Positions 2,455 to 64,000 of a DNA stretch of 64,000 nucleotides are shown here, in pieces. This DNA is from Chiloscyllium plagiosum. Its lineage: Eukaryota. Every line of letters begins with the position of its first letter. Within the stretch, counting starts at the first letter, position 1. Below the pieces are notes generated by a model that was not told the DNA's origin, did no database searches, and saw nothing but the letters and a program-made list of their open reading frames with translations. Both the position numbers and the translations under genes were made by a program. Where the stretch lies: the NCBI RefSeq assembly GCF_004010195.1, contig NC_057755.1, positions 12,694,142-12,758,141 on the forward strand, read 5' to 3'.

Positions 2455-2575
2455 GCATCAGGAAGGCTTTTGCCCGAAACGTCGATTTTCCTCCTTGGAT
2501 GCTGCTTGACCTGCGTTTTTCCAGCACCACACTCTCGACTCTAATCTCCAGTATCTGTAGTCCTCACTTTCGCCT
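2455..2575 (+). mobile_element. Solo Penelope-like terminal repeat (hammerhead core damaged), HK1 intron
   Basis: ggcttttgcccgaaacgtcga...gtcctcactttc matches the terminus of the PLEs elsewhere in the window. Confidence 0.75.
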
Positions 2576-7900: not shown

Positions 7901-8191
7901 ACCAATCCACTTCTAAATGCAGTGAGATCTGAACAAAATCCAGAGTGGTTGATAAATGGCAAACAACATTCACACCAAAAAAGTACAGCTAATGACCATC
8001 TCTGATGACACTATCGACACAACTTTTTGTGGGAATCGCCATGACTCACTATCAACATCCTGAGTATTACCATCATCCAAAAACTGAACTGGACTAGCAA
8101 TGTAAATTCAATGGCTTCAGCAAATAATTCACCAGTTGCCTGGCTGAGTGCAGATCCAACAACAATCGAGGTTTGGCACTATCCAGGATGA

Positions 8192-8399
8192 GAGGTGCTG
8201 GAAAAGCACAGCAGCTGAGGCAGCATCCAAGGAGCAGGAAAAATCTATGTTTCGGGCAAAAGCCCTTCCTGATGAAGGGCTTTTGTCCGAAACATCGATT
8301 TTTCCTGCTCCTCGGATGCTGCCTGAACTGCTGCGCTTTTCCAGCACCTCTCTAAATCTAGAATCTGGTTTCCAGCATCTGCAGTCCTTGTTTTTACCT
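8192..8399 (+). mobile_element. Fold-back PLE terminal-repeat insertion with 14-bp TSD
   Basis: TSD actatccaggatga at 8178-8191 and 8400-8413. Inverted arms about 8191-8268 and 8274-8351, centred on CTGATGA (8269-8275). Confidence 0.85.
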
Positions 8400-10798
8400 A
8401 CTATCCAGGATGAAGAATCCCACTTAATTGGCACTACACCCTCAACCGTTTCTTCTTTCTGCACCAGCAATGCTTAGCAGTGGAGTTTTTGCTGTCTACA
8501 AGATGCACTGCAGAAATTCACCAGGCTCCTTATACAGCACCTTCAACCTTCCCAAGATCACTGCCCTCAAGGACAATAGATGCAATGGGAACACCACCAA
8601 TTGTAAGTTCCCTATGAACTATTCACCATCCTGATTTGGAAAGAAGGACTGGATTGGCAAGATTACCTCTTCTGTCCTTTTTTTAAATCTACAAGCCATG
8701 CATGCCCCCTTATTCACAGAAATCAGTTGTTGTATTCTGTACTTTAAATGTGCAGCCATGCAGCTTAATGATATGGTAAGTGTGAGGTTTCAGAATGGGG
8801 GGGGATAGGGGATGGTGGTAGGGAAGTAATGGGTTGAGCCAGATCACATGCTAAAGGTTCCAGATGGAAGCATGAGCCTCAGGTCTAGCCCTGAAGGAAG
8901 GAGTATCAGGTCAGCATCTTGGGGAATGTGTAATTGGGGGTATAGTAACTTGGACAATACTAGGATAATAATGACCCAGGGATTTTGATTATATATTTAA
9001 ATGCCTGATTTCTCAGTAACTGCTTACTTAACTGCATCAGAACTCTCCAAATTCTCTGATTAAAATAGATTCTGGTCAGAGGAATCTTCCAACTTTCTTA
9101 GCAATGTCCTTAGTATTGGAAATTCTACAGTGTCCCATGTGCAGCTCCCATCTGTGCTGCAGAAACAATTATCTGGCCATCAGAAAACCCAGGCTTTTAT
9201 TGCAGTTCCTTTTCTGCCCTGGAGTTCCCTCCCTAACCTACACCGAGTCAACTGCAGCATTTCAAGGAAGCAGCTCACCACCACCTTCTTGAGGGCAATT
9301 AGAGGTGGGTCATAAATAATTGATAATAAGTAATAATAAATAATTCCCCTGCCAGTCATGCCCACATCCTAGGAACGAATAATCAAAAATGTTGTCATTG
9401 AAACCTGTTCTTCAAATTGCTTCCTGTGAAATTGAAGCAAGTGGGTTCATAATGAAAGCTTACACTACAGGATACAGATCCACAGGTTAATTGTAGTTAA
9501 CTTCTGACTGTATAATCAGGTCAGAAGTTTCCAAAGAACTGCCTATCCTATTTGATTTGATTCTTTGATTTGATTTATTGTCACATGTACTTAAGTGGAG
9601 GGGAAAAGTTTAGTTTTGCGAGCAGCACAGGCAGATCATAGCAAAAAAGGACATGTAGATCATAGAGTAAAAGTATGGAATGACTGTAAGAAATGAGAAT
9701 AAGGTCTGCTGTAGAGAGATAGCAAAGAGTTGTCTGGTGTCAGTACTGTCTTGAATGCAATTATTGACCCTCGACCCAGTACAGGAGTAACACTCTGAGA
9801 TTCTGTGAAAGCAACCCCATTACAATTTGCTGAAATTCTTGTCATTGAAGCTTTTATAACAATGGAAATTGCATTGCCAGTTTGGTTCACGCTCTCGAAT
9901 CAGCTGATTGGTCCATGGCAATACAGACATGCCAGTATAGTAATGAGAAATGGAATCTCAGGGAGAAGAAAAAAGTGGATGAGGAAGACTATGGGATGAA
10001 AGATTGAAGGTGAGAGAGGGAGACTGTAGAATTGCACTTTAGCAAATCGCTGCTTTTTAATGATTGGCTCAAAGTTCCTCCCAGTTTCCTGTGGTGGAAG
10101 GTGTGGTATTTTATGAAGTCAACAAAAGTGGGAAACCAAGAGTGGACGTCTGACTTTGGAATGCAAAACTTTGATCTCCTGGTGACAGTTTGAGATAAAG
10201 TCAATGGCATGTTTGCGATGTATCAAGCCTTGCACCAGCATGTGACAGGTTCCTCCTTGAAATAATATGCATACCATGAAAGGTCATTTTTACAGCAGTC
10301 TTGAAGCTGGCAATTTTAAAGCTGAGCTAGACAGATTTTTAATCAGTAAGGAAATCAAAAGGTTTTGGGGAAAAGGCAGGAAAGTGGAGTTCAGAAATAT
10401 CATTAGTCATTGTCTTATTGAGTACTTTCTACCATTTAATGTATCAAATGATCTAAATCAGCAGCACATGAAGATCTTATTATACCTGATCCACATTTGT
10501 TTAAAGGTGACATGCACCAAACAGCCTGCTACAGTTGTCTGTGGCTAGTAATTTTCCTTATTGAACGCTGCTGTAGCATATAGTACGGGTGCAGAAGAGT
10601 TGCTATTTGCAAGGAGACTCAGAATCAGCAAAAGTGAGTCAGTGATGACAAATGGATGTACTCTTGATCAATGACCTTTACAATGCATGGAAAAGTGGAC
10701 CTGCTGAGCCTGCAAATTCGGCACGAGACACTAACATGAATATGGATTAGTGGTGCTGGAAGAGCACAGCAGTTCAGGCAGCATCCGAGGAGCAGTAA

Positions 10799-10834
10799 AA
10801 TCAACGTTTCGGGCAAAAGCCCTTCATCAGGAAT
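10799..10834 (-). ncRNA. Minimal type-I hammerhead ribozyme motif in a PLE terminal repeat (element about 10743-10834)
   Basis: Minus strand AUUC-CUGAUGA-A-GGGC-UUUU-GCCC-GAAA-CGUU^GAUU. Confidence 0.7.
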
Positions 10835-10955
10835 ATTTCGATAAGTGTACATGAAAACACATCATTATTTTTCACAATAAATGAAATGCCTCTAACCTCC
10901 CTATCATCATTAATGCGGGCCATCAAAATTTAAAAACACTTTGCTACCTTTGTGT

Positions 10956-11074
10956 GGAGAAAGTGAGGTCTGCAGATGCTGGAGATCAGAGCTGAAAATG
11001 TGTTGCTGGAAAAGCGCAGCAGGTCAGGCAGCATCCAGGGAACAGGAGAATCGACGTTTCGGGCATAAGCCCTT
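10956..11074 (-). mobile_element. Solo PLE terminal repeat, truncated inside the hammerhead
   Basis: ggagaaagtgagg...gacgtttcgggcataagccctt. Confidence 0.8.
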
Positions 11075-12249: not shown

Positions 12250-13120
12250 TTTGAGTCAAAAGGTGTAGCACTGGAAAAGCACAGCAGGTCAGGCAATATC
12301 CAAGGAGCAGGAGAGTCGAGATTCTGGGCATAAGGTATATGGAGGGGTAAGTGGACTGAGTGATAAATAGGGTGGGAGTGAGGCTGGGGGGGGAAGGTAG
12401 CTGGGGAGATAATAGGTGGATGCAGGTGTGGATAATTGTGATAGGTCAGTGGGAAGAGTAGAGTGGATAGGTGGGAAGGAAGATGGACAGGTAGGACAGG
12501 TCAAGAGGGCGGTGCCGAGTTGAAGGGTTGGATCTAGGTTGAGGTGGGGGGAGGGGAGATTTGGAAACTTGTGAAGTCGATGTTGATGCTGTGTGGTTGA
12601 AGGATCTTGAGGTGGAAGATGAGGTATACTTCAAGTTGTTGGGTGGGTTTGATTTATCAGTGGAGGCAGCCCAGGATTTGCATGTCCTTGCAGGTGAAGT
12701 GGTCAGCCACAGGACAGTGGGGTTGTTTGTTGTGTGTGTCCCAGAGCTGTTCCCTGAAATGCTTTGTGAGTTGGCAACCTGTCTCTCTGATATAGAGCAG
12801 ACTACGTTGAAATTAACAGACACAATAGATGAGGTGGGTGGATGTGCAGAAAAATCTCTGCCAGATATGGAAAAATCCTTTGGGGCCCTGGAGAGAGGTG
12901 AGGGGGGAGGAACACAGGTTTAACACCTCTTACAGCAGCAAAGGAAGTGGAGGGTGGGTTGCTGGGAGCGTGGACCAAATGAGGGAGTCACGGAGGGATT
13001 GTCTCTACAGAATGCAGGTTGGAGAGGAAAATATATCTGTGGTGGTGGTGATAGGTGGCAGAAATGGCAGAGGAGAATGCGCTGTATCCAGAGGTGAGTG
13101 GGGTGGAAAGTGAGGACCAC
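12250..13120 (-). mobile_element. Degenerate Penelope-like element, 3' part
   Basis: Terminal repeat at 12260-12335, purine-rich 3' UTR, and decayed GIY-YIG region homologous to 19200-19880. Confidence 0.75.
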
Positions 13121-17139: not shown

Positions 17140-17960
17140 TGAAGGAGGCCATACAATTAATTATGTCTGTACCGGCTCCTGAAAGAGCCACACAGCTAGA
17201 GCCATTTCCAGCTCTATCTCCGGAGCCCTCTAAATTCATCACTTCAAATATATATTCAGCTCTTTTGAAACCTTCTATGGAATCAGCCTCCATCACTTTC
17301 CCAGGCAGCATTTTCTAAATCCTAACAGCTCTCCTCATTATCAATCTTAGCTGTCTTGCTGACAATCTTGCTAATGTGATCCCCTAGTTATTGATATACC
17401 AACTAGTGGAAATGGAATATTTGTCAAACGTATTCATAAATTCAAACATCTCAATGAGGTCACCTCTTAATCTTCTCTGCTTCAAGTAGAATAAACTCTC
17501 TGACCTTTCTTTCATCAAAAATCCCTCATTCCTGGTATCCAGTAAAATTCCTTTGAACTCTCTCTAGAGCTTTTAATGTCCTTCCAGACAGGTGCCCAGA
17601 AGTGAACACAATATTCCAAATATGGTTTGACCAATGATTTGCAGAGTCATAGAGATGTACAGTATGGAAGCAGACCCTTCAGTCCAACAAGTCCATGCCG
17701 ACCAGATATCCCAACCCAATCTGGTCCCACTTGCCAGCACACGGCCCATATCCCTCCAAAATCTTCCCCTATTCAAGTACCCATCCAGATGCCTTTTAAA
17801 TGTTGCAACTGTACTAGCCTCCACCATTTCCTCCGGCTCATTCCATACATGCACCACCCTTTGCGTGACAAAGTTGCCCCTTAGGTCCCTTTTATATCTT
17901 TCCCCTCTCTAAACCTATGCACTCTAGTTCTGGTCTCCCCCAACCTAAGGAAAAGACCTC
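17140..17960 (-). mobile_element. CR1-like LINE 3' ends (old copy plus younger copy)
   Basis: ORFs 17111..17311 and 17573..17857 carry LINE C-terminal peptides. Confidence 0.75.
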
Positions 17961-19880
17961 TTTCAACTGCCCCCTCACCCACAACCTCACCTCTCCTCAT
18001 TAAATCATCTCCCAGACCATCCATAACCTCCTCACCTCAGGGGATTTCCCATTCACAGCCTCAAACCTCATCATCTGCGCACCTTGCACTGCCCAATTCT
18101 ACATCCTACCAAAGATCCACAAACCTGACTTCCTCAATTGACCCATTGTCTCAGCCTGCTCCTGTCCCACTGAACTCATCTCTGCATACCTTGATACAGT
18201 CCTGTTCCCTTGGTCCAGGAACTCCTCACCTACGTTTGCGACACCACCCGTGCCCTTCACCTCCTCCAAGACCTTTGTTTCCCTGGCCCCCATTGCCTCA
18301 TCTTCACTATGGACATCTAGTCCCTATACACATCCATCTGCCATGACGAAAGCCTCCTAGCCCTCCATTTCTTCCTCTCACACCGTCCCAACCAGTATCC
18401 TTCCACTGATACCCTCATCCACCTGAAATGGTTCTCACACCCGATAACTTCTTCCAATCCTCCCACTTCCTCCAAACCAAAGGGGTAGCCATGGGCACCC
18501 ACATGGGCCCCAGTAATGCCTGACTTTTTGTCGGTTATGTGAACAGTCCATTTTCCGCACCTATGTCAGCACCATTTCCCACCTTTTCCTCCGCTACATC
18601 GATGACTGTATCATTGCTACGTCCTACTCCTACAAAGGGGTTGAACAGTTAATCAACTTCACCCTGACCTCAAATCCACCTGAACCACCTCCCTCTCCTT
18701 CCTGGTCCTCTCCATCTCCATGTCTGGCAACTGACTAATCACGGACATCTACTACAAACCCACCGTCTCCCACAGATGCCTGGACTGCACCTTCTCCCAC
18801 CCTGTCTCCTGCAAAAACGCCAACCCTTATTCCCAATTCCTCCGCTGCATCTGTTCCCAAGATGACAAATTCCACCATAGAAAATCCCAGATGGTCTCCT
18901 TCTTCAAAGATTTCAATTTCCCCTCCCATGCGGTGGACAAAGCCTTCCAGCGCATCTCATTCACTTCCCGCATCTCCGACCTCAAACCCTACCCTTCCCA
19001 ATACAAGGACAGAACACCTCTGCTCCTCATCTTCCACCCCACCAGCCTCCGTATACATCATATCATCCTCCACCATTTCGGCCACCTACAAACAGACCCC
19101 ACCACCAGAGATACATTCCCTCCCCGACTCCCTAGTCAGATTTGCGCCCCCCCCCAACCAGCCTTCACCCCACTCCCGGCACCTGACCCTGCCACTGCAG
19201 GAAGTGTAAAACCTGTGCCCACACCTGCCCCCTCACCTCTGTCCAAAGCCCCAAAGGACCCATTCACATCTGACAGAAATTTACCTGTATCTGCACTCAT
19301 GTCATCTACTGTATCCGTTGCACCCGATGTGGTCTCCTCTACATCAGGAGAGAGGAGGCCAACTTGTGGATCATTCCAGAGAATATCTCTGGGACATCAG
19401 CACCAACCAACCCCATCACCCTGTGGCTGAACACTTCACCACCCCACTCCTCCACTACACCAAGGACTGGTTCTGGGCCTCCTCCATCACCAAACCCTAA
19501 CCATCTGACACCTCATCTTCTGCCTTGGGACCCTGAAACCACACGGGATTAATGTGGATTTCACCAGTTTCCTTATTTACCCCCTCCCGCAATCTTATCT
19601 CAGTCCCAAGCCTCCAACTTGGCACCGCCCTCTTGACTTGTCCATCATCTTTCCCATCTATCCCTCTCCAACCTACGACCTTCACCCCCACCTTCATCTA
19701 CCCATTGCATTGTCAGCTACCTTCACCCCATCCCCACACCCCTCCCATTTGTCTGTCAGCTCCCCCCAACCCCCCATGCCACATTCCTGATGAAGGGCTT
19801 CTGCCCAAGACATCGATTCTCCTACTCCTCAGATGCTACCTGGCCTGCTGTGCTCTTCCAGCATCACACTCTTGACATTT
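17960..19880 (+). mobile_element. Penelope-like element (decayed RT, GIY-YIG and terminal repeat)
   Basis: FLQTKGVAMGTHMGP and RYIDD RT motifs; VIYCIRCTRCGLLYI GIY-YIG motif at about 19300-19345; terminal repeat with CTGATGA at 19787 (GAAA mutated). Confidence 0.9.
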
Positions 19881-20240
19881 TATCTACCTGTCCTGTTACC
19901 TGTAGACACACATCAAGATCCATCTGATCCTCGGTGCTTCCTTACCATTCATCATGCATCCCTTTGCCTTGTTATCCTTATCACTATTCACCACCCCATC
20001 AATTCACCACCTCACCATTCATGAACTTACTGATCAACCCTCCTGCAGTTAACTATAAAATAATTAACATATACCACAAGAAGAGAGGGCTCCAACACAA
20101 CTCACTGTGGAACCGCACTGGATACGGACTTCCAGTCACAAAAACACCCCTTGACCAAACCCTCTGCCTTCTGTCTCTCGATTCTGGATCAGTGGTGCTG
20201 GAAGAGCACAGCAGTTCAGGCAGCATCCGAAAAGCTTCGA

Positions 20241-20276
20241 AATCGACGTTTCGGGCAAAAGCCCTTCATCAGGAAT
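20241..20276 (-). ncRNA. Minimal type-I hammerhead ribozyme motif (intact core)
   Basis: Minus strand AUUC-CUGAUGA-A-GGGC-UUUU-GCCC-GAAA-CGUC^GAUU. Confidence 0.75.
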
Positions 20277-20471
20277 AAAGGCAGAGAGCCTGAAGCGTGG
20301 AGAGATAAGCTAGGGGAGGGTGAGGGTGGGGAGAGAGTAGCATAGAGTACAATGGGTGAGTGGGGGAGAAAATGAAGGTGATAGGTCAGGGAGGAGAGGG
20401 TGTATCCACTCCACCCTCTCCTCCCTGACCTATCACCTTCATCTCCTCCCCCACTGACCTATTGTACTCTA

Positions 20472-20903: not shown

Positions 20904-21623
20904 GGTTGGAGGGGTTGAGTCTGAGGGCGGAATTGCGGGATGTGGATGAGATGCGTTGGAGGGCATCTTTGACCACGTGGGAAGGGAAATTGCGGTCTCT
21001 AGAGAAGGAGGCCATCTGGTGTGTTCTATGGTGGAACCGCTCCTCCTGGGAGCAGATACGGCGGAGGAATTGGGAATACGGGATGGCATTTTTGCAAGAG
21101 ATAGGGTGGGAAGAGGTGTCATCCAGGTAGCTGTGGGAGTCGGTGGGTTTGTAGAAAATGTCAGTGTCAAGTCTGTCGTCACTGATGGAGATGGAGAGGT
21201 CCAGGAAGGGGAGCCAGGTGTCGGAGATGGTCCAGGTAAATTTAAGGTCAGGGTGGAATGTGTTGGTGAAGTTGATGAATTGCTCAACCTCCTCGCGGGA
21301 GCACGGGGTGGCGCCAATGCAGTCATCAATGTAGCGGAGGAAGAGGTGGGGAGTGGTGCCGGTGTAATTACGGAAGATCAACTGCTCTACGTAGCCAGCA
21401 AAGAGACAGGCATAGCTGGGGCCCATACGTGTGCCCATGGCTACCCCTTTGGTCTGGAGGAAGTGGGAGGATTCAAAGGAGAAATTGTTAAGGGTGAGGA
21501 CCAGTTCGGCCAAACGAATGAGAGTGTTGGTGGAGGGGTACTATTGGGAACGTCTGGAGAGGAAAAAATGGAGGGCTTGGAGGCCCTGGTCATGGCGGAT
21601 GGAGAAATTGTTAAGGGTGAGGA

Positions 21624-23340: not shown

Positions 23341-23344
23341 AATC

Positions 23345-28890: not shown

Positions 28891-29806
28891 ATGCTTCACA
28901 GAAGCACATTAAACCAAAGACTGTCACTGAGTCACAGAGCAATATTAGGTCAGGTGACCAAAAGTTTGGTCAGACATGGAGGTTTGAAGGATAGTGTAAA
29001 AGGGCAATCTAGGGAGGGAATTTCCCAGCATAGGGCAACGGTTGGTTGAGTAATTATAAGAGGGACAAGTGGCCAGAAAATGGATGAGCACAAAATTACA
29101 GCAGGTTATGGAAATAGTGATTAATACTTAAATAAGGAGTAATCACGCCATGGAGTGATTTCAAAACCAGAATCAGCATTTTAAGATCAAACATGGCTAT
29201 CAGACATCACTGTAGATCAGTGAGTACAAGAGGGACAGGGGAATGGGTCTTGCTGCAAATTTGGACACAAGCACCAGAGTTATGTCTGATCTCCGTTTTA
29301 AAGAGGGTAAAATGTATGAGACCAGGCAGGAAAGCATTGAAATAGACAAGAGGTAACAGAGGTATGAATGTGTTTAATTAGCTAAAAGGGGTGAATCTTA
29401 CAGGGGTAGAGTCTTAGAGATGGTACAGTGTGAGCCCAGAAGCTCATTTCATGATCAGATACAACACAAATATTAAAAACAGACTTGCTTAATCTCAGCC
29501 TGTTGCCAATGAGTGAAGTGGACCCAGCAGTCGCTGTTTGCAAAAGCAACCAAAACTATGGCTTCAGTCTTCTTAATATTCAAAAAGAGAAAACCGTTTC
29601 TCAGGAAAAACTTGTCAAGCAAGCAATGTGACAATTTGCCAGGAGTGGAATGGTCAAAAGAGCAGGTGGTGATTTAGACCTGGGTGTTATCATGTTACAT
29701 GTGAAAACTAAAATCGTAGAATCCATAAAGTGCAGATAGAGGCCATTCGGCCCATTGATTCTTCATTGACCCTCCGAAGAGCCTAACCTTGGCACAATCA
29801 ATCCAC

Positions 29807-29930
29807 CTGAAGAAGGGCTTATGCCCAAAACGTCGATTCTCCTGCTCCTTGGATGCTGCCTGACCTGCTGCGCTTTTCCAGCAACACATTTTCAGCTCTG
29901 ATCTCCAGCATCTGCAGCCTTCACTTTCTC
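29807..29930 (+). mobile_element. Solo PLE terminal repeat starting at the hammerhead core, inserted into a decayed SINE
   Basis: Direct repeat cacaatcaatccacct at 29793-29808 and 29931-29946; CTGAAGA at 29807; GAAA mutated to AAAA. Confidence 0.85.
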
Positions 29931-30687: not shown

Positions 30688-30769
30688 AAAGACAAGGACA
30701 GTAGCGATGTAAGGGCAGAGAGGGGAAGAGCTCCTAGTGTACATTCAGCCTGAACTGTCCCCATCAACT

Positions 30770-32610
30770 ACCACCATCCTTTGCCTGGCCAAACTCGTCT
30801 TCACTTTGATAAACTTCTCCTTTAACTCCTCCACTTCCTTCAGGTCAAAGGGGTAGCCATTGGTATTCCTCATGGGCCCCAGTTATGCCTGTCTCTTTGT
30901 GGGATATATGAAACATTCCTTGTTCTAGTCCTACTCTGGCCCCCACTCTTTTTCCATCAATGACATCATCAGTACTGCTTCCCTTTCTTCTGAAGTGGAA
31001 ACATTTATCAATTTTGTTTCCAAATTCCGCTCTGCTTTCACCTTCATCTGGTCTACCTCTGACCCCTCTCTTCCCTTTCTCAACATCTCTGTTTCCATTT
31101 CTAGGGATAGGCCACCAATTCCACTACAAACCCACTGACTCCCACAGTTACCTAGCTATGAATGCTTACACCCTGTATCCTGTAAAGATCCTATTCCATT
31201 CTCCCAGTTCTTCTGTCTCCATTGCATCTGTTCAGATAATGCCAACTTCAACAAGGGAGCCTCCAATATAACCACCTTCTTCCTCAATTGAGGATTCCCC
31301 AGCACCATTGTCGACAGGGCCTTCAGCTGACTCCGACCCATCTCCTGCACTTCGGCCCTCACCTTATGTTCCCTTATGTTCCCTCTCACAGCAGTGATTG
31401 GGTCCCTTTTTAAAACCACTAGCATCCATACCCGAAGGATCATTATCCTTCCATTATCATTTCCACCACCTCCAGCGAGATGCCAGCACCGGACACATAG
31501 TCCCCACTCCTCCCTTGTCAGCAATCTGCAGGGACTGGTCCCTCTGGAACACCCTGGTCCACTCCTCCTCCACTCCCCATGCCTGCCTACAGCCTCGCAA
31601 TACTTTTCCATGAATTGAATTGAATTGAATTTATTATCATGTGTAGCAAGGCACAGTGAGCAATACAGGCAGATCACATAGTTAAGTAGCATAGATAAGT
31701 AAATAATAGGTAAACAGTGGCTAAGACAAAAGCACAGGTACAGGCGAATGTTAAGAGTTTGAGAGTCCATTCAGTATTCTCATAACAGTTGAGTAGAAAC
31801 TGTAACAAAACCGGCTGATGCGTGTGTTCAGGCTTCTGTACCTTCTCCCTGATGGTAGAGGTTGTAGAAAAACATTGCCAGCAATGGGATGGATCTTTGA
31901 GAAAGAACACAAGGTGTAACACCTGCCCATTTACTTTCTCCCTTCTCACCTCCCAAGGCCCCGGACACACCTTCAAGAGGAAGCCTGCACTTCACTGTAT
32001 TCACTACTCACCATGTGGTCTCCTCTACACTGGGGAGACAAAATGCACACTGGGTGACCGCTTTGCAGAACATCTACATTCTGTCCACAAAACTATCACC
32101 AAATCATCAGTTGCCTGCCACTGTGTTCCCTAGCCAAAATCTCTGTCTCAGGCTTGCTGCAATGCTCCAGTGAAGCTCAGTGCAAGCTGGAAGAAGAGCT
32201 TCTCATTTTCTGCATGGGGATCATGCGGTCATCAGGACTCGAGATCGAATTCAATGATTTTAGGGCCTGAGCATCTTCTCCCATGTCCTTACCCCAACCC
32301 CCACAAACATGAGCTTACACCACAACCATTGGCAGCTACTCATGATCCCCATTAGCTGCTCTTGATACTTCTAGGTTGACTTTTACCCATTCCTTTTTCT
32401 GTCCGACTGTTGATCTGTGTCTCTGGGCTCCATTTCCATCTATTGTTTATTCTTCTCCCCACTTGCCAACCCCAACTTCAGCTTATATACCAATCTTTGC
32501 CAAGCTTTCAGTCAGTTCTGAAGAAGGATCACTGGACTCGAAACATTATCTCTGCTTTCTCTCCACAAACGCTGCCAAACCTGCTGTGATTTCCCAACAA
32601 TTTTAGTTTC
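30770..32610 (+). mobile_element. Degenerate Penelope-like element (second subfamily), interrupted at 31612-31905
   Basis: QVKGVAIG..MGPSYACLFVGY RT motif; CGLLYTGETK...DRFAEHL GIY-YIG motif; terminus with CTGAAGA (32518) and GAAA (32540). Confidence 0.8.
31612..31905 (-). mobile_element. Rex1/Babar-like LINE 3' end (related relic at about 9550-9700)
   Basis: (attca)n tail; frameshifted KDPSH...LPSGRRYRS-type C-terminus. Confidence 0.6.
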
Positions 32611-36235: not shown

Positions 36236-37027
36236 GTCAGAAGTCAGATGATACCCAGTTATAATCCAACAGGTTTATTTGAAATCACAAGCTTTCGGAT
36301 TTTATAGGCAGATCGATCATACAAGTTGTGTGAGTGGAATGTTGACAGGCTGAAATAGTAGGTCTCTGCAGCTGAGCAAGAGTGTCAGATGGTGTGAGTA
36401 AAGTGTCAACAATTGAATATCAAGGAGAGAGTTGACCTATAATCTGAATAAATGAGGCAGAAAGATAATTACATAGACTAAAAATAAGGTGATGCTGGAG
36501 ACTAACCAAATGGCTGGAATAACATAACCAATGTAATAAGTAATCCAAAATTGTCCAAACTAAATAAGATAGAGAGACCATAACAATTTATTGAGGTGGT
36601 GGTGTCAAAACAGGACAGTAAGGAAACTTCACAGATACAAAACAGTGTGATGGGGTCACACGTTGCACAACATAAACTCAAGATCATTGTTGAGGCCATC
36701 TTCATGGGTATGGAATTTGGCTATCAGTTTCTGCTCCGTTTCTGCATTGTTGTATATCTTGAAGGCCGCTTACCAAACTTTACTCACACTGTCTGATAGT
36801 CTTGATCACCTGCAGAGACTTATTATGCAGCCCGTCGACACTCCACTCACACCATTTGCATCTCTCTGCCTATAAATTCTGTGTTCTGTGTGCTTCTCTC
36901 TTACTTCACCTGGCAAAGGGGCCGCACTCCAAAAGCTTGTGATTTTAAATAAACCTGTTGGATTTCAACCTGGTGTCATCTGACTTCTAACCTTGTCCAC
37001 CCCGGTCCAACACCAGCACTTCCACAT
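36236..37027 (-). mobile_element. Penelope-like element (third subfamily) with inverted termini, in the last TACR2 intron
   Basis: Minus-strand EQKLIAKFHTHEDGLN (36689-36736), typical of a PLE endonuclease C-terminus; inverted termini; TSD agaa(g/t)aaaaatca at 36223-36235 and 37028-37040. Confidence 0.75.
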
Positions 37028-43262: not shown

Positions 43263-43725
43263 GTAGAACGGTGACTCCGTGGTTAGCACAGCTGCCTCAC
43301 AGCGCCAAGGAGAAAGTGAGGACTGCAGATGCTGGAGATCAGAATCAAGAGTGTGTGGTGCTGGAAAAACACAGCAGGTCATGCAGTATCCAAGGAACAG
43401 GAGATGATAATGAAGGTCTCCAAGGACCTAGGTTTGATTCCAGCCTCAGGCGACTGTCTGTGTAGTTTGCACATTCTCCCCATGTCTGTGTGGGTTTCTT
43501 CCGGGTGCTCTGGTTTCCTCCCACAATCCAAAGATGTGTGGCTTAGATGAATTGGCAATGCTAAATTGCCCACAGTGTGCACGAATGTTTAGGTTAGGAG
43601 CATTAGTCAGTGGTAAATGTACAGTAATAGGATAGAGGAATAGGTCTGGGTGAGTTACTCTCCCAGAGGGTCAGTGTGGACTCGTTGGGCCAAATGGCCT
43701 GTTTCCACACTGTAGGGATTCTATG
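43262..43725 (+). mobile_element. HE1-like SINE with a nested PLE terminal fragment (about 43309-43404, minus strand)
   Basis: SINE head interrupted at ccaagga, which is duplicated at 43305-43311 and 43420-43426. Confidence 0.85.
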
Positions 43726-48838: not shown

Positions 48839-48983
48839 ATGTGGAGCTGCCAGTGTTGGACTGGGGTGGACAAAGTCAGAAGTCACATGACACCAGGTGC
48901 AGTGATGAAGGGGCTGCATTCCAAAAGCTTTTGAATTCAAATAAACCTGTTGGACTATAACCTGGTGTCATGTGACTTCTGAC
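48839..48983. mobile_element. Small fold-back PLE terminus insertion (same subfamily as 36236-37027)
   Basis: Perfect 24-bp inverted repeat at 48875-48898 and 48960-48983; hammerhead relic gtgatgaaggggctgcattccaaaagctt. Confidence 0.7.
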
Positions 48984-50240
48984 AATTTTACAAGGGGAGT
49001 CTAAAACGGGTCTTAGGCATCTTACGTACATCTGTTACAGACAGTTATTTAATGTTTAGCAAGTCGCCTTATCCACTCTGAAGTCAGGTTTGGGATAGGT
49101 GTTGCGTTGATTCCAGAAATTGGTATATTTTGCACCCATTTTTCATCTCCTATTAGTTCAATGTTTAAACTTTGTGACTCTCAGGAATTGGTGAACTTTA
49201 CTCCCTTATTGATCAATATCTACTGGTGGTGGAGCAAGTTTTCCCAATCAGGCAGCCCATGGAGGTAAGGCATCAATTACAAAGAGACGTTTATGGAGAC
49301 TGGTAATAGAATGTAATGTATGGGCCCAGAAACAGGAGCTTGCTGGCATTGTCTTGGACACTCCGGCCTCAGATAAAGGGAGATATTAGGTTCCCCACTA
49401 GTAAGGTATGAACAAAACTAAACTGTGGTTCTTGTTTCTCATTGCTATCTCAGGATCTTGCTTCAGAGAGATCTGTGGGATTCCGATGAGATTTGGATCC
49501 CTTTGACTTTAGAACTGTAACATCTTCAGCACTGAAACTGTCCAGTTGACTTAACGGTTCTCTGCAGGTGCGTAAAGTTTATTATTGCAATATCTTACTC
49601 GAATTGCTACTTCACAGGCTATTGTATCTCTCTTTCCTTCTTTTTCATCTGTTCATTGAATACCCCCTTAACCTTTTGTCTGTATTCCTTCATACTTTTT
49701 GATAAGAGTTATCAATCTCAGTTTTAAAATCAACAACTAATCGATCATCAGTTGCCAATGTTCCAAACTTCTATTGGCTTTTGTGTGAAAATAGGGTAGA
49801 AGATAACCGAGTATATTATTTGCTAGACTGTTAATGCAGAAAGGTAGGTAATATTCTGGGGACCTCGGTTTTAATCCTGTCAGTGGAGATGGTGGAATTT
49901 AAATTCAGTAATAATCTGGACATAAGAATGTAGTGAGGTATTTAAACCATTGCTGATTGTTAGAAAACCCATCTGGTTCACCAATATCCTTTAATGATGG
50001 AAATCTACCATTCTAGGAATGACTCCAGACCCACAGCCATCGAAATGCCCTAGCAGGCCATTCAGTCTTAACTGCGCTCTGGGCAATTAGGGATGGGCAA
50101 TAAATGCTGGTCCAACCAGTGACATCCACATCCCATCAATGAATTATTTCTAAACATCCTGCTGGTTCCATATCTTTCCATGATCTGCTTACATATCTGT
50201 CCTCTATCTCCTGTTAGATAATGGGAGGCCCTCATTATAA

Positions 50241-50450
50241 GGAGAAAGTGAGGTCTGCAGATGCTGGAGATCAAAGTTGAAACTTTATTGCTGGAACAGC
50301 ACAGCAGGTCAGGCAGCATCCAGGGAACAGGAGATTCGACGTTTCGGGCACAGGCCTTTCCTGAAGAAGGGCCTGTGCCCGAAACGTCGAATCTCCTGTT
50401 CCCTGGATGCTGCCTGACCTGCTGTGCTGTTCCAGCAATAAAGTTTCAAC
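50241..50450. mobile_element. Fold-back PLE terminal-repeat insertion with perfect 81-bp arms and a 14-bp TSD
   Basis: Arms at 50276-50356 and 50370-50450 are exact reverse complements; TSD ggccctcattataa at 50227-50240 and 50451-50464. Confidence 0.92.
50358..50391 (+). ncRNA. Minimal type-I hammerhead ribozyme motif (intact core)
   Basis: UUC-CUGAAGA-A-GGGC-CUGU-GCCC-GAAA-CGUC^GAA; predicted cleavage after C50388. Confidence 0.75.
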
Positions 50451-50639
50451 GGCCCTCATTATAACCCCATCATAGTGATTACACCATTCTTATTCCTAAA
50501 TTCTACCCATATTGCCTCGCTGGATGAACCATATTTTTTAGACCGCTCTGAGTCCTCCCTTAGTAAAGATGTGACATTCTCCTTAATCAGTTATAAAACT
50601 CCTCCACCCCTTTTACATCCCTTTCTCTCACCTGAAACA

Positions 50640-52859: not shown

Positions 52860-53015
52860 AAACAATAATAGCGAGTGCTAGAGAAATTCAACAGGTCTGG
52901 CAATATCTGTTGAGAGAAAAACAGAGCTAATGTTTAAAGTCCTGTGACTTTTTCATCAGAATTCCAGCTCTCTCTGTTTTGTTTTGGATTTCCAGCGTCC
53001 ACATTTTTTTGTGTT
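52860..53015 (-). mobile_element. Decayed PLE terminus with a hammerhead relic
   Basis: Minus strand ttctgatgaaaaagtcacaggactttaaacatt; resembles the terminus at 32518-32610. Confidence 0.5.
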
Positions 53016-54841: not shown

Positions 54842-55308
54842 NNNNNNNNNNNNNNNNNNNNNNNNNNNNNNNNNNNNNNNNNNNNNNNNNNNNNNNNNNN
54901 NNNNNNNNNNNNNNNNNNNNNNNNNNNNNNNNNNNNNNNNNNNNNNNNNNNNNNNNNNNNNNNNNNNNNNNNNNNNNNNNNNNNNNNNNNNNNNNNNNNN
55001 NNNNNNNNNNNNNNNNNNNNNNNNNNNNNNNNNNNNNNNNNNNNNNNNNNNNNNNNNNNNNNNNNNNNNNNNNNNNNNNNNNNNNNNNNNNNNNNNNNNN
55101 NNNNNNNNNNNNNNNNNNNNNNNNNNNNNNNNNNNNNNNNNNNNNNNNNNNNNNNNNNNNNNNNNNNNNNNNNNNNNNNNNNNNNNNNNNNNNNNNNNNN
55201 NNNNNNNNNNNNNNNNNNNNNNNNNNNNNNNNNNNNNNNNNNNNNNNNNNNNNNNNNNNNNNNNNNNNNNNNNNNNNNNNNNNNNNNNNNNNNNNNNNNN
55301 NNNNNNNN
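54842..55308. other. Assembly gap (N run)
   Basis: Run of n. Confidence 1.
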
Positions 55309-55775
55309 ATATCAAAGTTGAAACTTTATTGCTGGAACAGCACAGCAGGTCAGGCAGCATCCAGGGAACAGGAGATTCGACGTTTCGGGCACAGGCCCTT
55401 CTTCAGGAATGAGCAGAGAGTGTTCAGCAGGAGAAGATAAAAGGTAGGGAGGAGGGACTTGGAGGAGGGGCGTTGGAAATGTGATAGGTGGAAAGAGGTC
55501 AAGGTGAGGGTGATAGGTCGGAGTAGGATGGAGGCGGAGAGGTCAAGAAGAAGACTGCAGGTCAGGAGGGCGGTGCCGGGCTGGAGGGATTCGGCTGAGA
55601 CAAGTTGGGGGGAGGGGGGATGAAGAAACTGGTGAGGTCCAAGTTCATCCCCTGTGGTTGGAGGGTTCCCAGTCGGAAGATAAGACGCTCCTCCTCCGAC
55701 CGTCGGGTTGTTGTGGTTTGGCGGTGGATGAGTCCAATGACCTGCATATCCTCGGTGGAGTGGGAGGGGGAGTTG
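55309..55775 (-). mobile_element. Young Penelope-like element 3' end
   Basis: Endonuclease C-terminus MQVIGLIHRQTTTTRRSEEERLIFRLGTLQPQGMNLD (ORF 55562..55747); terminus identical to 50270-50356. Confidence 0.9.
55375..55410 (-). ncRNA. Minimal type-I hammerhead ribozyme motif (best-formed copy)
   Basis: Minus strand AUUC-CUGAAGA-A-GGGC-CUGU-GCCC-GAAA-CGUC^GAAU; 4-bp stem I (AUUC/GAAU). Confidence 0.8.
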
Positions 55776-56190
55776 ACTATCCTTGATCACATTATTCCTA
55801 TCCAGATGTTCATAAATCCTATCCCTTACAATTCTCTCTAAGATTTTGCCCACAACAGAAGTGAGACTCGCTGGCCTATAGTTACTAGGGTTATCCCTAT
55901 TCCCCTTCTTGAACAAGGGAACCACATTTGCTAGCCTCCAATCTTCTGGCACTACTCCTGTAGACAACGAGGACATAAAAATCAAGGCCAATGGCTCTGC
56001 AATCTCCTCCCTTGCTTCCCAGAGAATCCTAGGATAAATGCCATCAGGCCCAGGGGACTTATCTATTTTCACCCTTTCCAGAATTTCCAACACCTCTTCT
56101 CTACATACCTCAAAGCCATCCATTCTACTTAATTGTGACTCAGTACTCACATTGACAACAATGTCCTGTTCCTGATTGAATACTGACGAA
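55776..56190 (-). mobile_element. Young CR1-like LINE ORF2 segment
   Basis: KSPGPDGIYPRIL...VPEDWRLANVVPLFKKG...NYRPASLTSVVGKILE within ORF 55350..56369. Confidence 0.9.
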
Positions 56191-56579
56191 AAGTCAGGGA
56201 ACATCCCCACTTCTGACCTTATGATGGGCAGAAGATCAGTGATGAAGCAACTGAAAATGTTTGGGCCGAGGACACTATCCTGAGGATCTCCTGCAGACAT
56301 GTCCTGGAGCTGACTTGATAAATTTCCAACAACCACAACAATCTTTCTCTGTACCAGGTATGACTCCAATCAGTGGAGAATTTTCCCCACTGACTACAGT
56401 TTTGCTTGGGTCCATTAGTGCTACACTTGGTCAAATATGGCCTTGATGTCAAGGATTATGACTCTCATCTCACCTCTGGAATTCATCTGTTTTGTCCATG
56501 TTTGAACCAAGGCTGCAATGAGGTCAGGAGCTGAGTGGTCCTGGTGGATTCCAAACTGGGCATCACTGAATAGGCCATC

Positions 56580-58450: not shown

Positions 58451-58454
58451 CTTA

Positions 58455-60745
58455 CAACTCTCCAGTCCCCAACACCTCATCTTCATCATGGACATCCAGT
58501 CTCTCTACATCTGCATCCCCCACGAGGAGGGCATAAAATCCCTCCACTTCTTTGTCTCCCACAGACTCAACCAGTCCCCCTCCACTGATACTCTCACTTG
58601 ATTAGCGGAGCTAGTCCTCACCCTTAATAACATCTCCTTTGAATAATCCCACTTCCTACAAACCAGAGGGGTAGCCATGGGTACCTGCATGGGTCCGTGC
58701 TATGCCTGCCTCCTCATAGGATACATGGAACAGTCCTTCTTCCACAGTTACACCGGCACCAACCCCCATCTTTTCCTCTGCTACATTGATGACTGTATTG
58801 GTGCTGCTTCATGCTCCACGAAGTGCTCGAACAGTTCTTCAACGTCACCCGCAACTTCTACCCTGACCTCAAATTCATCTGGATCATCTCTAACACCTCT
58901 CCATCCCCAGCAACCGACTTAGCATCAACATCAATTTCAAACCCACCAACTCCCACAGCTACCTTGACTACACCTCCTCCCATCATCCCTCCTGCAAAAT
59001 ATGCGATCCCATACTCCCAATTCCTCCACCCCCATTGCATCTGTTCCCAGGATGAGGGATTCTACCCCAGATGTCCTTCTTCAAGGACAGTAATTTCCAC
59101 CACCCGCCCCCATGATTAATGATGTCCTCCATTGCATCTCTTCCACCTCCCAGACTTCTGCCAATCCCGCCACTCCTCCACGACCACAACAAGGACAGTG
59201 TCCCCCACTGTCCACCCCACTAATCTACAAATCCAGCACATTACTTGCAGTCTGACCTCAATACCAAAAAGATATTTCCTTCCCCACCCCTATATGCTTT
59301 CCATAGGGACTGTTCCCTCTGTGACTCCCTCATTAGGTCCATACTCCCCACAAACCTCTCCTCCATATCTGGCACCTTCTCCTGCTGCCGTAAGAGATGC
59401 AAATCCTGCTTCCAATGTCCCAAAGAACCATTTCCAAATCCATTAATCTGATTTACAGCATCCGTTGCTGCCAACGTGATCTCCTCTACATTGGATAGTC
59501 CGAGGGCAAGCTCAGGTACCGGTTCAGACAGCATCTATGGTCCGCACGCTCCAATCAACCCCACTGCCCGATTGCCATTCATTTCAACACCCCCTCCCTC
59601 TCCCCAATGACATGAGCATCCTGGGCCTCCTCCATTGTCAAAATGAGGCCACGCGCAAACTGGAGGAAGAACACCGCATCTTCTGCCTCGGGAGCTGACA
59701 ATCTTATGGCCTCAACATAGAATTCACCAGCTTCCAAATCTCCCAAACCCCTACCTCATCCCAGGTCCAGCACTTCCCCTCTGCCCCACCCTTTTTGCCT
59801 GACCTAATCTGTCCATCTTCCTCCCACCTATCTGCTCCACCCTACCCACCGACCAGTGGGCGCTAACCACTGTGCCACCGTGCCGCCCATACAGCGGGGT
59901 CCAGCACTTCCCCTCTGCCCCACCCTTTTTGCCTGACCTAATCTGTCCATCTTCCTCCCACCTATCTGCTCCACCCTACCCACCGACCAGTGGGCTAATG
60001 GTCGGATACTTGGTAGTGTGGATGAGCCTCCATACAGGGATGTGGAGGCACTGGAACGGGTGCAGAGGAGGTTTACCAGGATGTTGCCTGGTATGGAAGG
60101 AAGATCGTATGAGGAAAGACTGAGACACTTGGGGCTGTTTTCATTAGAGAAAAGAAGGTTTAGGGGTGACTTGATTGAGGTGTACAAGATGATTAGGGGG
60201 TTAGATAGGGTTGACAGTGTGAACCTTTTCCCGCGTATGGAGTCGGGTATTACAAGGGGGCATAGCTTTAAATTAAGGGGGGGTAGATATAGGACTGAAG
60301 TTAGGGGTAGGTTCTTCACTCAGCGAGTCGTAAGTTCATGGAATGCCCTGCCAGTAGCAGTGGTGGACTCTCCCTCTTTATGGGCATTTAAGCGGGCATT
60401 GGATAGATATATGGAGGATAGTGGGTTAGTATAGGTTAGGTGGGCTTGGATCGGCGCAACATCGAGGGACAAAGGGCCTGTACTGCGCTGTATTCTTCTA
60501 TGTTCTATGTTCTATGTTCTATGTTCTATGTTCTATGTTCAGTCTCATTAACCTCCTACCTCCATCAACCTAAGACTATCCCACCAACCTTTCCCCTAGC
60601 CCCATCCTCTTTCCTCTACTTATTTCTCAGCCTCCTTCCCCCTTCTCAGTCCTGATGAAGGGTCCTGCCCAAAATGTCAACTCTCCTGCTCTTCTGATGC
60701 AGGTTGACCTGCTGTGCTTAATCCAGTTCCACATTTTATCAACTC
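58455..60745 (+). mobile_element. Penelope-like element interrupted by a LINE/SINE chimera (59858-60540)
   Basis: GVAMGTCMGPCYACL and CYIDD RT motifs; decayed GIY-YIG; terminus with CTGATGA at 60652 (GAAA lost). Confidence 0.85.
59992..60540 (+). mobile_element. Young CR1-like LINE 3' end with a (TTCTATG)n tail
   Basis: ORF 60018..60434 is an intact C-terminus; 6-7 TTCTATG units. Confidence 0.92.
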
Positions 60746-63110
60746 TGGGGATTTATCCACCCCAATACTTTTCAAGAGACCCAACACCACTTCTATCTTG
60801 ATCTCAAATTGATGTCATGTGCTAGCCTGCTCCACGTAAATCTCACTATTAGATTAGATTCCCTACAGTGTGGAAACAGGCCATTTGGCCCAGTAAGTGT
60901 ACACTAACCCTCCTAGAGTAACCCATCCAAACCCATTTCCCTCTGACTAATGCATCTTACACTGTGGGCAATTTAGCATGGCCAGTCCACCTGCACATCT
61001 TTGGATTGTGGGAGGAAACTGGAGCACCCGGAGGAAACCCACACAGATATAGGGAGAATGTGGAAACTCCACACAGACAGTCACCCGAGGTTGGAATCGA
61101 ACCTGGCGCTGGGAGGCTGCAGTGCTAACCACTGAGCCCTCACTGTGCCTTCTCCTGGGTGAATACTGATGCAAAGTGTTCATTTAGGATACTCTGCCTC
61201 CAAGCACAATTCTCCTCCCTTACCCTTGAGTGGTCCCAACTTCTCCCTAGTTTTTAATGGCTGTATAGAATGCATTGGGATTCTCTTTAACCCCATTTGC
61301 CAAGGTCACTTCATAGCCCCTTCTTGCTCTCCTAACTCCCTGCTTGAGTTCTTTCCAGCTGTCTTTATATTCCTCATTGGCCCTGTCCAATTTTAGCTTC
61401 CTAAACCTTGCATATGCTTCTTTTTCCCTTTTGACTAAATTCAATTCCTCCCTCGTTATCCAAAGATCCCATAACTTGCTATCCTTGTCCTTCCTCCTTA
61501 TTGAAACATCCCGGTCCTGAACTCTCATCAGCAGGTCTTTAACCACTTCCCACATGTCAAATATGGACTGGCCTGATAAGAGCTCCTCCCAATTAATACT
61601 CCCTAGCACTTGCCTAATACTGCCATAATTTTCTCTCTCCTAATTTAGTACCTTGCCATAAGATCCTGACCTGTCTGTATTCATAGCTACAAGAACATCT
61701 GTATTAAACGTTAAGGAGTTGTGATCACTGTTTCCAAGACGCTCTCCCACTGAGAGGTCAGTCACCTAGCCAGGCTCATTAGCCAGTACAAGGTCCAATA
61801 TGGCCCTTCTTCTAGTTGGACTATCCACATACTGTTTCGAGAAACTCTATTGGATGCACTTAACAAATTCTGCCCTATCTAAGCCTCTTGCTCTGAGGCA
61901 GTCCCAGTCAATATTGGGGAAGTTAAAGTCACCCACTATCACAACTCTTTTTATTGTACCTTTCCATGATCTACCTACATATTTGTCTCAGTGGCTGTTG
62001 GAGGACCTATAGTGTAATCTCATCAGAGTGAGTGCATCCTTCTTATTTTTGAGCTTGATCCATAATGGCTCAGTGGTTGAGCCCTCCAGTGTATCTTCTC
62101 TAAGTGCAGATGTGACATTCTCCCTGAATAATAATGCAATTCCTCCACCTCTTTTATCTTCCTCTCTATCTCGTCTAAAACAACAAAACCCTGGAATGGT
62201 GAGCAGCTAGTCCCGTCCCTCTTTCCACTACATCTCTGTAATGGTCACAACATCATAGTCCCATGTTACTGATCCAGGCTCTAAGTTAATCTGCCTTACC
62301 TATGATACTCCTTGCATTGAAATAAACACATTCAGTTCATTAGTACCATTGTGTTCATCTACGTGTCTCTGCCTGTCCTTTCTTTCTGATTACTGGTACC
62401 CTTATATGTACATTCCCCTCAATCTCTCCACTTGCTCACCTGCTGCTCTGGTTCCCAGGCCTCTGCCATTCTCATTTAAATCCGCACGAGTAGCACTTGT
62501 GAATCTCCCTGTGAGGATGTTGACTCCCCTCCAGTATAGGTGCAACCTGTCCCTCTTGTACATGTCACCCCTGCCCCAGAAGAGGTCCCAATGATCCAAG
62601 AACCTGAAACCCTGCCCCCTACACCAGCTCCTTAGCCACACATTCATCTGTCCTACCTTTCAATTCCTTCTCTCACTAGCACATGGCCCTGGTAGTAACC
62701 CAAAGATTATTACTCTCAAGGTCCTGCTTTTCAACCTCTTTCCTAACTCCCTGTACTTACTCTGAAGGACCTCATCCCCTTTTTACCTATGTCGTTGGTA
62801 CCAATGTCACAAAGACGTCTGGCTGCTCACCTTATGAATTTCGTGCAATGGCTCAGAGACGTCTCAAACGTGGGCAGTGAAGTGCCTGTCCATGCCCCTA
62901 ATGAGCAAGTCTCCGACCACTATCACTCGCTTGGATTTTGCCCGACCCTGCTGTACAGCAGAGCCTATTGTAGTGCCATAGGCCTGGCTGTCGCTGATAT
63001 ACTCCCTTGATAGGCTATCCCCCCTCAACAGTATCCAAAATGATATACCTGTTAGAGAGGGGAATAACCACAGAAGACTCCTGTACTACCAGCCAGCCTC
63101 TCCTGCCAGT
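60745..63110 (-). mobile_element. CR1-like LINE 5' half including the ORF1 esterase-like region (continues 56580-58450)
   Basis: MNVWLRSWCRGQGFRFLDHWDLFWGRGDMYKRDRLHL (ORF 62402..62647), typical of CR1 ORF1 SGNH-esterase; ORF2 linker in ORF 61247..61609. Confidence 0.85.
60848..61150 (-). mobile_element. HE1/V-SINE-like SINE
   Basis: Head, V-domain and tail. Confidence 0.85.
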
Positions 63111-63377: not shown

Positions 63378-64000
63378 GGAGAAAGTGAGGACTGCAGATA
63401 TTGGAGTTCAGAGTCGAAAAGTGTGATGCTGGAAAAGCACAGCCAGTCAGGCAGCATCCGAGGAGCAGGAGAGTCAATATTCTGCACATAAGCTCTTCAT
63501 CAGGAATGAGTTGGGTGAGAGCCAAGGAGCCTGTACTTCCACGCACATCATGTGCTGTGTCCGTTGCTCTCAGTGTGGTCACCTCTATATTGGGGAGACA
63601 GGATGCCAACTTGTGGAACATTTCAGAGAACATCTCTGGGACACACCCACCAAACAACCCCACCGCCCTGTGACCGAACACTTCAATGCCCCCTCCCACC
63701 CCACCAAGAACATGCAAGTTATTGGTCTCCTCCACCACTAAACTCTAACCACCCGACGCATGGAGAAAGAATGCCTCATTTTCTGCCTTGGCAATCACAC
63801 AGGATCAATGTTGATTTCATCAGTTTCCCCATTTTCCCCATGCCTTCACCTTATCCCAGATCCAACCCTCTCTGACCTATCACCATCACCGCCTACCTTC
63901 ACCTACCTATCGCATTCCCAGTTACCTTCCCCCTAACCCCACTCCCCTCCCATTTATCTTTCAGCCCCCTTGGGTACCCCCCTCCCCATTCCTGATGATG
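63378..64000 (+). mobile_element. Penelope-like element: inverted terminal repeat followed by a sense GIY-YIG/3' segment
   Basis: Inverted terminus at 63378-63510; CVRCSQCGHLYIGETGCQLVEHFREHL (ORF 63511..63741); window ends in attcCTGATGA, the start of another hammerhead. Confidence 0.88.

Follow-up and report, generated by a model that had tools for sequence, protein, structure and literature searches.

Putative minimal hammerhead ribozymes in a short 3'-terminal module of Penelope-like elements of Chiloscyllium plagiosum, with U6 chimeras at the predicted cleavage bond

A stretch of 64,000 nt from the genome of Chiloscyllium plagiosum (contig NC_057755.1, positions 12,694,142 to 12,758,141; hereafter, the window) contains repeated copies of a short motif that resembles the catalytic core of the hammerhead ribozyme, which raises the questions of whether these are genuine hammerheads, which element carries them, and whether they cut in vivo. 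For the hammerheads of animal Penelope elements, activity is on record only as weak cleavage in vitro, and the genome examined here provides a natural sample of great size. An earlier note on the window had claimed four intact cores in Penelope-like terminal repeats. The exact pattern CTGANGANGGGCNNNNGCCCGAAACGTH (CTGANGA-N-GGGC-N4-GCCC-GAAACGTH) recovers all four, and the ranges claimed for them contain the exact sites plus a few flanking bases. From the sequence evidence given below, we put at roughly 85% the probability that minimal type-I hammerheads open a 90–130-nt 3'-terminal module of Penelope-like elements (PLEs), and that they likely cut themselves after GUC or GUU in vivo, probably only with a second copy or an element protein.

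The exact pattern has four sites in the window (the intact cores of Table 1) and is absent from all 100 dinucleotide-preserving shuffles of it; when up to three mismatches are allowed, there are 10 window matches against 0 expected. Genome-wide (3,556,477,427 bases), the pattern occurs 47,056 times on the forward and 47,157 times on the reverse strand, for a total of 94,213, and a reversed control pattern has no match on either strand of the same 3.56-Gb genome. We also joined the window to its neighbors as one contiguous stretch of 329,205 nt (311,748 bases readable). Here a pairing-aware descriptor that requires both catalytic boxes and a helix II of at least 4 bp finds 40 sites, compared with 2 on the reversed sequence. 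The shuffles, the reversed genome pattern, and the reversed-sequence descriptor control together rule out a chance origin of the motif. Blastn with three unit queries recovers 15 units of the family with helix II GGGC/GCCC in the window and 86 in the 329-kb stretch, about one per 3.6 kb. Several damaged copies had been listed earlier: those at about 2465, 8268, 11053, 19787, 29807, 60651 and 63378–63504, and the start at 63991, are recovered by blastn as units of this family, and those at 32518, 52929–52959, 36910 and 48902 turn out to belong to other hammerhead families. Three units were absent from that list (12258–12334(-), 43309–43404(-), and the left arm 50241–50360(-) of an inverted dimer).

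Table 1. Hammerhead units, related cores, and associated Penelope features in the window.
Feature	Position	Strand	Remarks
Decayed unit	2465..2574	+	found by blastn
Second head-to-head inverted dimer	8181..8384	.	cores 8246-8273(-) and 8269-8296(+), both damaged
14-bp duplication ACTATCCAGGATGA	flanks 8181-8384 dimer		
Solo unit	10738..10835	-	intact core 10803-10830 (UUUU loop, GUU triplet); starts ~5 nt before CUGA
Unit without CUGANGA box	10953..11074	-	begins at helix II
Decayed unit	12258..12334	-	Penelope ORF fragment 12696-13150(-) 362 nt upstream
Decayed Penelope ORF	17950..19575	+	RT, thumb, frameshifted GIY-YIG; terminates ...LGTLKPHGINVDFTSF
Damaged unit	19786..19868	+	core 19787-19814, 3 mismatches
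Unit, core and tail	20150..20280	-	intact core 20245-20272 (UUUU loop); 3' end of 5'-truncated Penelope copy
Penelope-type RT palm/thumb	20905..21603	-	88% identical to L027 ORF residues 328-562
Solo unit	29802..29926	+	UUAU loop, G12 mutated to A; flanking 16-bp duplication CACAATCAATCCACCT
Damaged core, second family	32518..32547	+	CUGAAGA-A-GGAUC-ACUG-GACUC-GAAACAUU
Damaged core, third family	36910..36941	+	GGAGC/GCUCC type, helix III AGCU, different tail
5'-truncated unit	43309..43404	-	tail only
Damaged core, third family	48902..48933	+	
14-bp target-site duplication GGCCCTCATTATAA	50227-50240 and 50451-50464		of 50241-50450 dimer
Head-to-head inverted dimer	50241..50450	.	two units, tails outward
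Left arm core of 50241-50450 dimer	50338-50365	-	3 mismatches
Right arm of 50241-50450 dimer	50361-50388	+	intact core
Damaged core, second family	52929..52959	-	helix II AAGUC/GACUU
Unit around 55379 core	55317-55409	-	tail interrupted by N run 54842-55308
Intact core, CUGU-loop subfamily	55379..55406	-	helix I AUUC/GAAU, 4 bp, best of the four
C-rich Penelope 3' region upstream of 55379 core	55410..55684	-	~70% homologous to 19512-19863
Decayed unit	60651..60747	+	Penelope ORF fragment 58449-59597(+) 1054 nt upstream
Decayed unit	63378..63504	-	helix II GAGC/GUGC
Unit start	63991..64000	+	continues past window; Penelope ORF fragment 63535-63699(+) 292 nt upstream

Corroborating the earlier identification of a catalytic core of the minimal type-I kind, all sequence features of metazoan PLE minimal hammerheads (PMC4209133) are present. 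The cores have CUGANGA and GAAA boxes, one unpaired A, and a 4-bp helix II closed by G10.1-C11.1; the conserved positions C3-U4-G5-A6-N7-G8-A9 and G12-A13-A14 are found at all four window sites, and a palindrome, ACGU, replaces the hairpin of helix III. The helix II loop is UUUU at 10803 and 20245 and CUGU at 50361 and 55379, N7 is U or A, and H17 is C in three of the four cores and U at 10803; the loop variants (UUUU, UUAU, CUGU) and N7 variants (U, A) had been read correctly. Among the 40 descriptor sites, 39 have an unpaired base between A9 and G10.1 (mostly A; U in the GUUACCU family), 28 have ACGU or AGCU as helix III, and the other 12 have CpG-decay forms such as ACAU and AUGU (seven sites) and further variants, with H17 being C in 22, U in 11, and A in 7. 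Helix I is only 2–4 bp long, which speaks against the assignment, as does the Rfam result below: 10 of 19 intact copies read AUUC/GAUU (2 bp, U·U, 1 bp), and two reach 4 bp.

Helix II sequences unrelated to one another set apart at least four families of the motif: GGGC/GCCC, GGAGC/GCUCC, GGGUC/GACCC, and GUUACCU/AGGUAAU or GGGUGAC. Three of them have ACGU as helix III and one has AGCU. The second family of the window has helix II GGRUC/GACYC, and the third has GGAGC/GCUCC with AGCU as helix III. The stem II covariation that had been expected among genome-wide copies is seen at positions 10.2/11.2, where copies of the main family on a fixed CUGAUGA/UUAU background have G-C 1693 times, A-U 348, A·C 153, and G·U 162 (odds ratio ~24). 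The G-C and A-U pairs exceed the mispairs, and the compensated A-U outnumbers either single change (A·C, G·U) more than twofold; these are counts of related copies that share ancestry, and thus indicate an amplified compensated lineage rather than many independent events.

In the Rfam search, no hammerhead family matched anywhere in the window at gathering score, or at E-values up to 10 in 50200–50520 and 20215–20300. The Rfam hammerhead models expect a helix III hairpin, and the miss would follow from that expectation. In the same search, the inverted dimer returned sub-threshold microRNA-model matches alone (mir-589, 36.3 bits vs a gathering score of 54.8). Nested-fold programs cannot represent a double hammerhead, in which helix III lies between two closed helix I loops as a pseudoknot, and the cofold of the 50361 copy mainly shows the effect of the inverted left arm.

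The core opens a module with well-defined ends, flanked by target duplications of 13–16 bp. In ten aligned copies, homology begins at or a few bases before CUGA and continues for 65–125 nt, and the whole module measures 90–130 nt, with the core first and then a conserved tail (...GGAUGCUGCCUGACCUGCUGUGCUYUUCCAGCA...). In the 329-kb stretch, 52 of the 86 units start at or before +2 of CUGA. The 5' ends lie at -5 to 0 relative to CUGA and not one of the 86 begins at the predicted cleavage bond, so cleaved RNA would rarely serve as a template on its own. The 3' ends form two clusters, about +81 to +89 and +124/125, with neither poly(A) nor a microsatellite. Seven of 13 solo units examined are flanked by a 9–16-bp repeat, which we read as a target-site duplication, and in these seven, readable through a duplication of at least 9 bp, there is no extra G as a cap mark at the 5' junction but microhomology with the target instead. 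This anatomy also suggests that the stubs, about a million in number, may be run-off copies of the first 100–130 nt of the element.

Evidence that bears on cleavage comes from junctions with U6 snRNA. A genome search for U6 loci gave 453,147 first-look candidates, 48 of which were scored and the best 30 inspected; in two of these 30 (L063 and L080), U6 ending in ...AUAUUUUU or ...CUAUUUUU continues directly at G1.1 of the tail, the GUC being absent. A second genome search, for the U6 end followed by 0–30 nt and the tail box, returned six matches on six contigs, with six different tail variants and all six joined exactly at the predicted bond, and the same search for the AGCU family returned one match, joined exactly after GCUA. 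In total, eight of eight directly joined U6-tail chimeras fall at the predicted bond, in two families whose triplets are GUC and CUA. All eight carry the five Ts of the mature U6 end, and the seven family-1 chimeras contain either full U6 (four, by Rfam) or its last 24–33 nt (three). No U6 joined directly before CUGA was found in a genome search allowing up to 30 nt, in which the single match has a 23-nt spacer, although this 5' end is by far commoner among insertions than the cleavage bond.

Hammerhead cleavage leaves a 5'-hydroxyl. The 3' end of mature U6 consists of five Us and bears a 2',3'-cyclic phosphate, and RtcB joins U6 to RNAs with just such a 5'-hydroxyl (Moldovan et al., PMC6789731). 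We read the U6-tail chimeras as an indirect record, in DNA, of cleavage in the germ line, and consider their joining by ligation more likely than by a template jump; such junctions would also be expected if something other than the ribozyme generated a 5' end there. The junctions incline us, by a small measure, toward a fuller account, that of a fossil record in which the minimal hammerheads of Penelope elements in animals, though weak, would cut in the germ line, an RtcB-type ligase would join the 5'-hydroxyl tail to mature U6 with its five Us and cyclic-phosphate end, and the Penelope RT would copy the product, all junctions falling at the ribozyme bond and none at the much commoner 5' end of the leader. 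In one single-cell poly(A) library, a kind unsuited to cleavage ends, 1,205 reads fall about equally on the two strands with no pile-up of ends, and a second such library has no reads on the module.

U6 is joined to other sequences in this genome as well. In about 10 of the best 30 U6 loci (L061, L068, L069, L073, L078, and L081–L085), the U6 3' end, just after the U6 match at 1501–1607, meets the first bases of a tRNA-like SINE (GGGTGGCACAGTGGCTCAGTGGTTAGCAC...), and hence U6 chimeras here also form with the 5' end of another retroposon. Joins at variable positions exist too: in L075 and L079, U6 enters the 3' part of a Penelope ORF (...PVA.HFNSP...). Some U6-tail chimeras occur as head-to-head palindromes, with a U6 3' piece central between two outward tails (L088, L090) or with two inverted U6 copies (L091). 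A 315-kb stretch (C25:39188708-39503327) with five nearly identical U6 genes of top score is probably the functional U6 cluster.

Four families that differ in helix II and in their tails nevertheless share the catalytic boxes and a palindromic helix III, and the eight U6-tail chimeras mark the predicted bond in both GUC and CUA families. Both observations argue against the reading that the module persists only as a binding or start signal for the RT, with helix II and the tail box being what matters, the core a passenger, and no cutting in vivo. We judge this unlikely, while granting that helix I is weak and that the box GAUGCUGCC(U/A)GACCUGCUG, a candidate RT binding or start signal, is common to the tails of two hammerhead families that differ in helix II (as at 32518 in the window and at 17558–17751 of the joined 329-kb stretch). 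Published work lends it something further: Naiad PLEs thrive without hammerheads (PMC8557442), and the hammerhead of PAc, the Poseidon element of Anolis carolinensis, is dispensable for insertion in vitro, which needs the sequence after the hammerhead and not its activity (PMC11167929). The tail box also recurs at a regular 49-nt spacing, at least six times, at about 9129–9498 of locus L022 (reverse-complemented), which suggests a small satellite derived from the Penelope tail.

The term terminal repeats finds no support here, in that the module was nowhere seen to flank an ORF at both ends; those ORF-linked copies that are readable are 5'-truncated, and the others read N. The majority of copies are instead solo stubs or head-to-head palindromic pairs. 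Abutting units in the 329-kb stretch comprise 15 head-to-head pairs and one tail-to-tail pair but no genuine direct pair, the single 'direct' case being one unit split by the aligner. Seven of 10 whole dimers examined sit inside one target duplication of 10–16 bp and hence each represent one insertion; the dimer at 50241–50450, within one 14-bp duplication, likewise reflects one insertion event. A longer inverted pair lies 91,201–90,836 nt upstream of the window start (108799–109164 of the 329-kb stretch). As a separate observation, the inverted dimer folds at 50311–50415 into one long, perfect hairpin; palindromes of this sort may give rise to hairpin RNAs.

This arrangement weighs heavily against the units being non-LTR retrozymes, that is, head-to-tail tandem hammerhead repeats that spread via circular RNAs. 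Animal type-I hammerheads are reported to lie often in retrozymes (PMC7229834), and a 2026 preprint (Li, Clavereau and Pollet) reports retrozymes in one chondrichthyan; yet the 15 head-to-head pairs without a genuine direct pair, and unit ends at -5 to 0 and at the tail end rather than at the cleavage site expected of a circle-derived monomer, make this origin very improbable.

A part of the earlier description that does stand is the tie to Penelope ORFs, which is physical for the cores at 20245 and 19787. The ORF at 20905–21540(-), which lies 625 nt upstream of the unit ending at 20280, carries ...RYIDDC... and ...FYKPTDSHSYLD.TSSHP..K..., which we take to be a Penelope-type palm/thumb signature. 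An N run (20472–20903) lies between the two, and the endonuclease of this copy would fall within it. The ORF has 68,565 first-look candidates in the genome, and all 150 that were scored match at 85–100% identity. A more complete copy of the same family, the L027 ORF, has RVT_1 at 253–437 and GIY-YIG at 671–704, with Pfam scores just below the cut-offs (27.6 bits against 29.6, and 20.4 against 22.6), as well as IIYCIRCSRCGLLYIGET and a CX4CX2C linker, and its hammerhead core lies 366 nt after the stop. Its nearest ESM-Atlas clusters (0.96–0.97) carry RVT_1, GIY-YIG, and HTH_animal, and the linker is given for the Neptune and Nematis clades in the PLE literature (PMC8557442). The ORF at 17950–19575(+) is 58% identical to L027 ORF residues 200–719, with a frameshifted region at about 19200–19575; the unit at 19786 lies 340 nt past the last protein match (19446), and its core about 210 nt past the ORF end.

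The association holds across the larger sample. Of 18 Penelope-type ORF fragments in the 329-kb stretch, 10 reach the 3' end of the ORF, and seven of these have a same-strand unit downstream, in six cases at 292–366 nt. At least one of the three remaining ORF ends, that of a divergent Penelope ORF (30749–32121(+)), instead precedes the hammerhead of another family, at 32518, by about 400 nt. The element encodes in one ORF an RT followed by a C-terminal GIY-YIG endonuclease, as in PLEs with an endonuclease (EN+), and shows inverted, 5'-truncated abutting copies and a tail without poly(A). These match published PLE anatomy, which comprises inverted 5'-truncated copies, a tail, both target strands being cut and extended, and an internal RT start (PMC8557442, PMC11167929). 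A genome search with Pfam GIY-YIG was uninformative, with one weak match among 150 scored of 14,403 candidates. The longest open RT frames were followed into their surroundings at eight loci, where homology common to the copies begins no more than about 500 nt upstream of the RT query and the ORFs are mostly N. N runs also adjoin two of the four intact cores in the window (20472–20903 and 54842–55308) and cover most of the long Penelope ORFs in loci L022–L029.

Most RT pieces in the window are fragments of CR1-like LINEs (KSPGPDG, NYRPxSL, FDxVPH), all on the reverse strand (21441–21926, 55725–56369, 57947–58336, 14478–14998, 45014–45563, and 23329–23666). That the module is the 3' tail of such LINEs, or of a SINE using them, is scarcely credible: the fragments do lie near two intact cores (21441–21926(-) and 55725–56369(-)) and throughout the sample, but they are present in nearly every sampled locus whatever the orientation or distance and are therefore unrelated to the module, which has a Penelope-type ORF end at a fixed 292–366 nt upstream on the same strand and terminates without a microsatellite or poly(A). 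On this ubiquity and the fixed Penelope spacing, we reject a CR1-LINE origin.

Returning to the reading we favor, that of a self-cutting hammerhead at the head of a 3'-terminal Penelope module, the observations could be accommodated as follows. The element's RT would start inside the tail, as in PAc, and copy back to the 5' end of the RNA, 0–5 nt before CUGA, yielding solo stubs. Head-to-head palindromes would form when both target strands are extended, or by snap-back of the cDNA. Cleavage would leave a 5'-hydroxyl on the tail RNA, an end to which mature U6 snRNA would occasionally become attached before the product is copied into DNA. Against this reading, the minimal hammerheads of PLEs reported so far are inefficient in vitro (PMC4209133). 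The PAc hammerhead cut only with protein present (PMC11167929). The loopless palindrome ACGU or AGCU, kept across families, would fit the published idea of a double hammerhead; since head-to-tail pairs are lacking here, the partner would have to come from another RNA or, within a tandem element, from its second module, with protein perhaps holding the two together.

The role of hammerheads in EN+ Penelope elements is still called unclear in the literature (PMC8557442). Junction fossils make testable both cutting in vivo and where the element RNA and its reverse transcription start. For annotation, a repeat class of considerable size is accounted for by the module together with its palindromic pairs, as are many hairpin-like loci that weakly resemble microRNA precursors.

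A literature search for hammerhead ribozymes together with Chondrichthyes found no description of these motifs, and one for U6 snRNA together with Penelope had none among the matches listed. PLE minimal hammerheads are known in fishes, coelacanth, amphibians, and reptiles (PMC4209133), and a 2026 preprint (Li, Clavereau and Pollet), with one chondrichthyan sampled, places retrozymes and PLEs in the class. The motifs described here belong to a kind already characterized by Cervera and De la Peña (2014; PMC4209133) but occur in a new host, whose class is absent from those named in that study. The likeness extends to the type-I topology, the CUGANGA and GAAA boxes, G10.1-C11.1, the one unpaired base between A9 and G10.1, a palindrome rather than a hairpin at 15.x-16.x, and a short helix I, as well as to the presence of several consensus families per genome and of mostly single dispersed motifs with opposite-strand pairs. 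Helix II differs, being 4 bp in the main family here compared with 6–8 bp in Schistosoma and Drosophila, and so does copy number, with 94,213 intact cores here compared with ~4,000 in coelacanth and ~9,000 in Xenopus (PMC4209133).

Three further systems invite comparison. Non-LTR retrozymes (PMC7229834; Li, Clavereau and Pollet, 2026) likewise have type-I hammerheads related to PLE pLTRs and form short non-autonomous copies; here there are no tandem arrays, and the short copies are solo or palindromic. PAc (Frangieh et al., 2024; PMC11167929) shares a hammerhead at the pLTR/leader junction, an internal RT start that leaves a 'tail', the cutting and extension of both target strands, and a preference for A/T-rich targets. 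The PAc ORF starts inside the hammerhead, whereas here the AUG frame of CUGAUGA stops after 17 codons and the A7 subfamilies, unlike PAc, have no AUG; and whereas none of the RNA-seq reads given for PAc end where its RNA is cut, the corresponding bond here is marked by DNA chimeras. A parallel to these junctions is found in U6/LINE-1 chimeras attributed to RtcB ligation (Moldovan et al., 2019; PMC6789731), in which U6 with five Us is likewise placed head-on to the 5' end of a retroelement and then copied. LINE-1 junctions fall at variable truncation points, in contrast to the eight of eight U6-tail joins at one bond here, the bond at which a hammerhead would leave a 5'-hydroxyl, and the copying enzyme, unlike that of the U6/LINE-1 chimeras, would be the Penelope RT.
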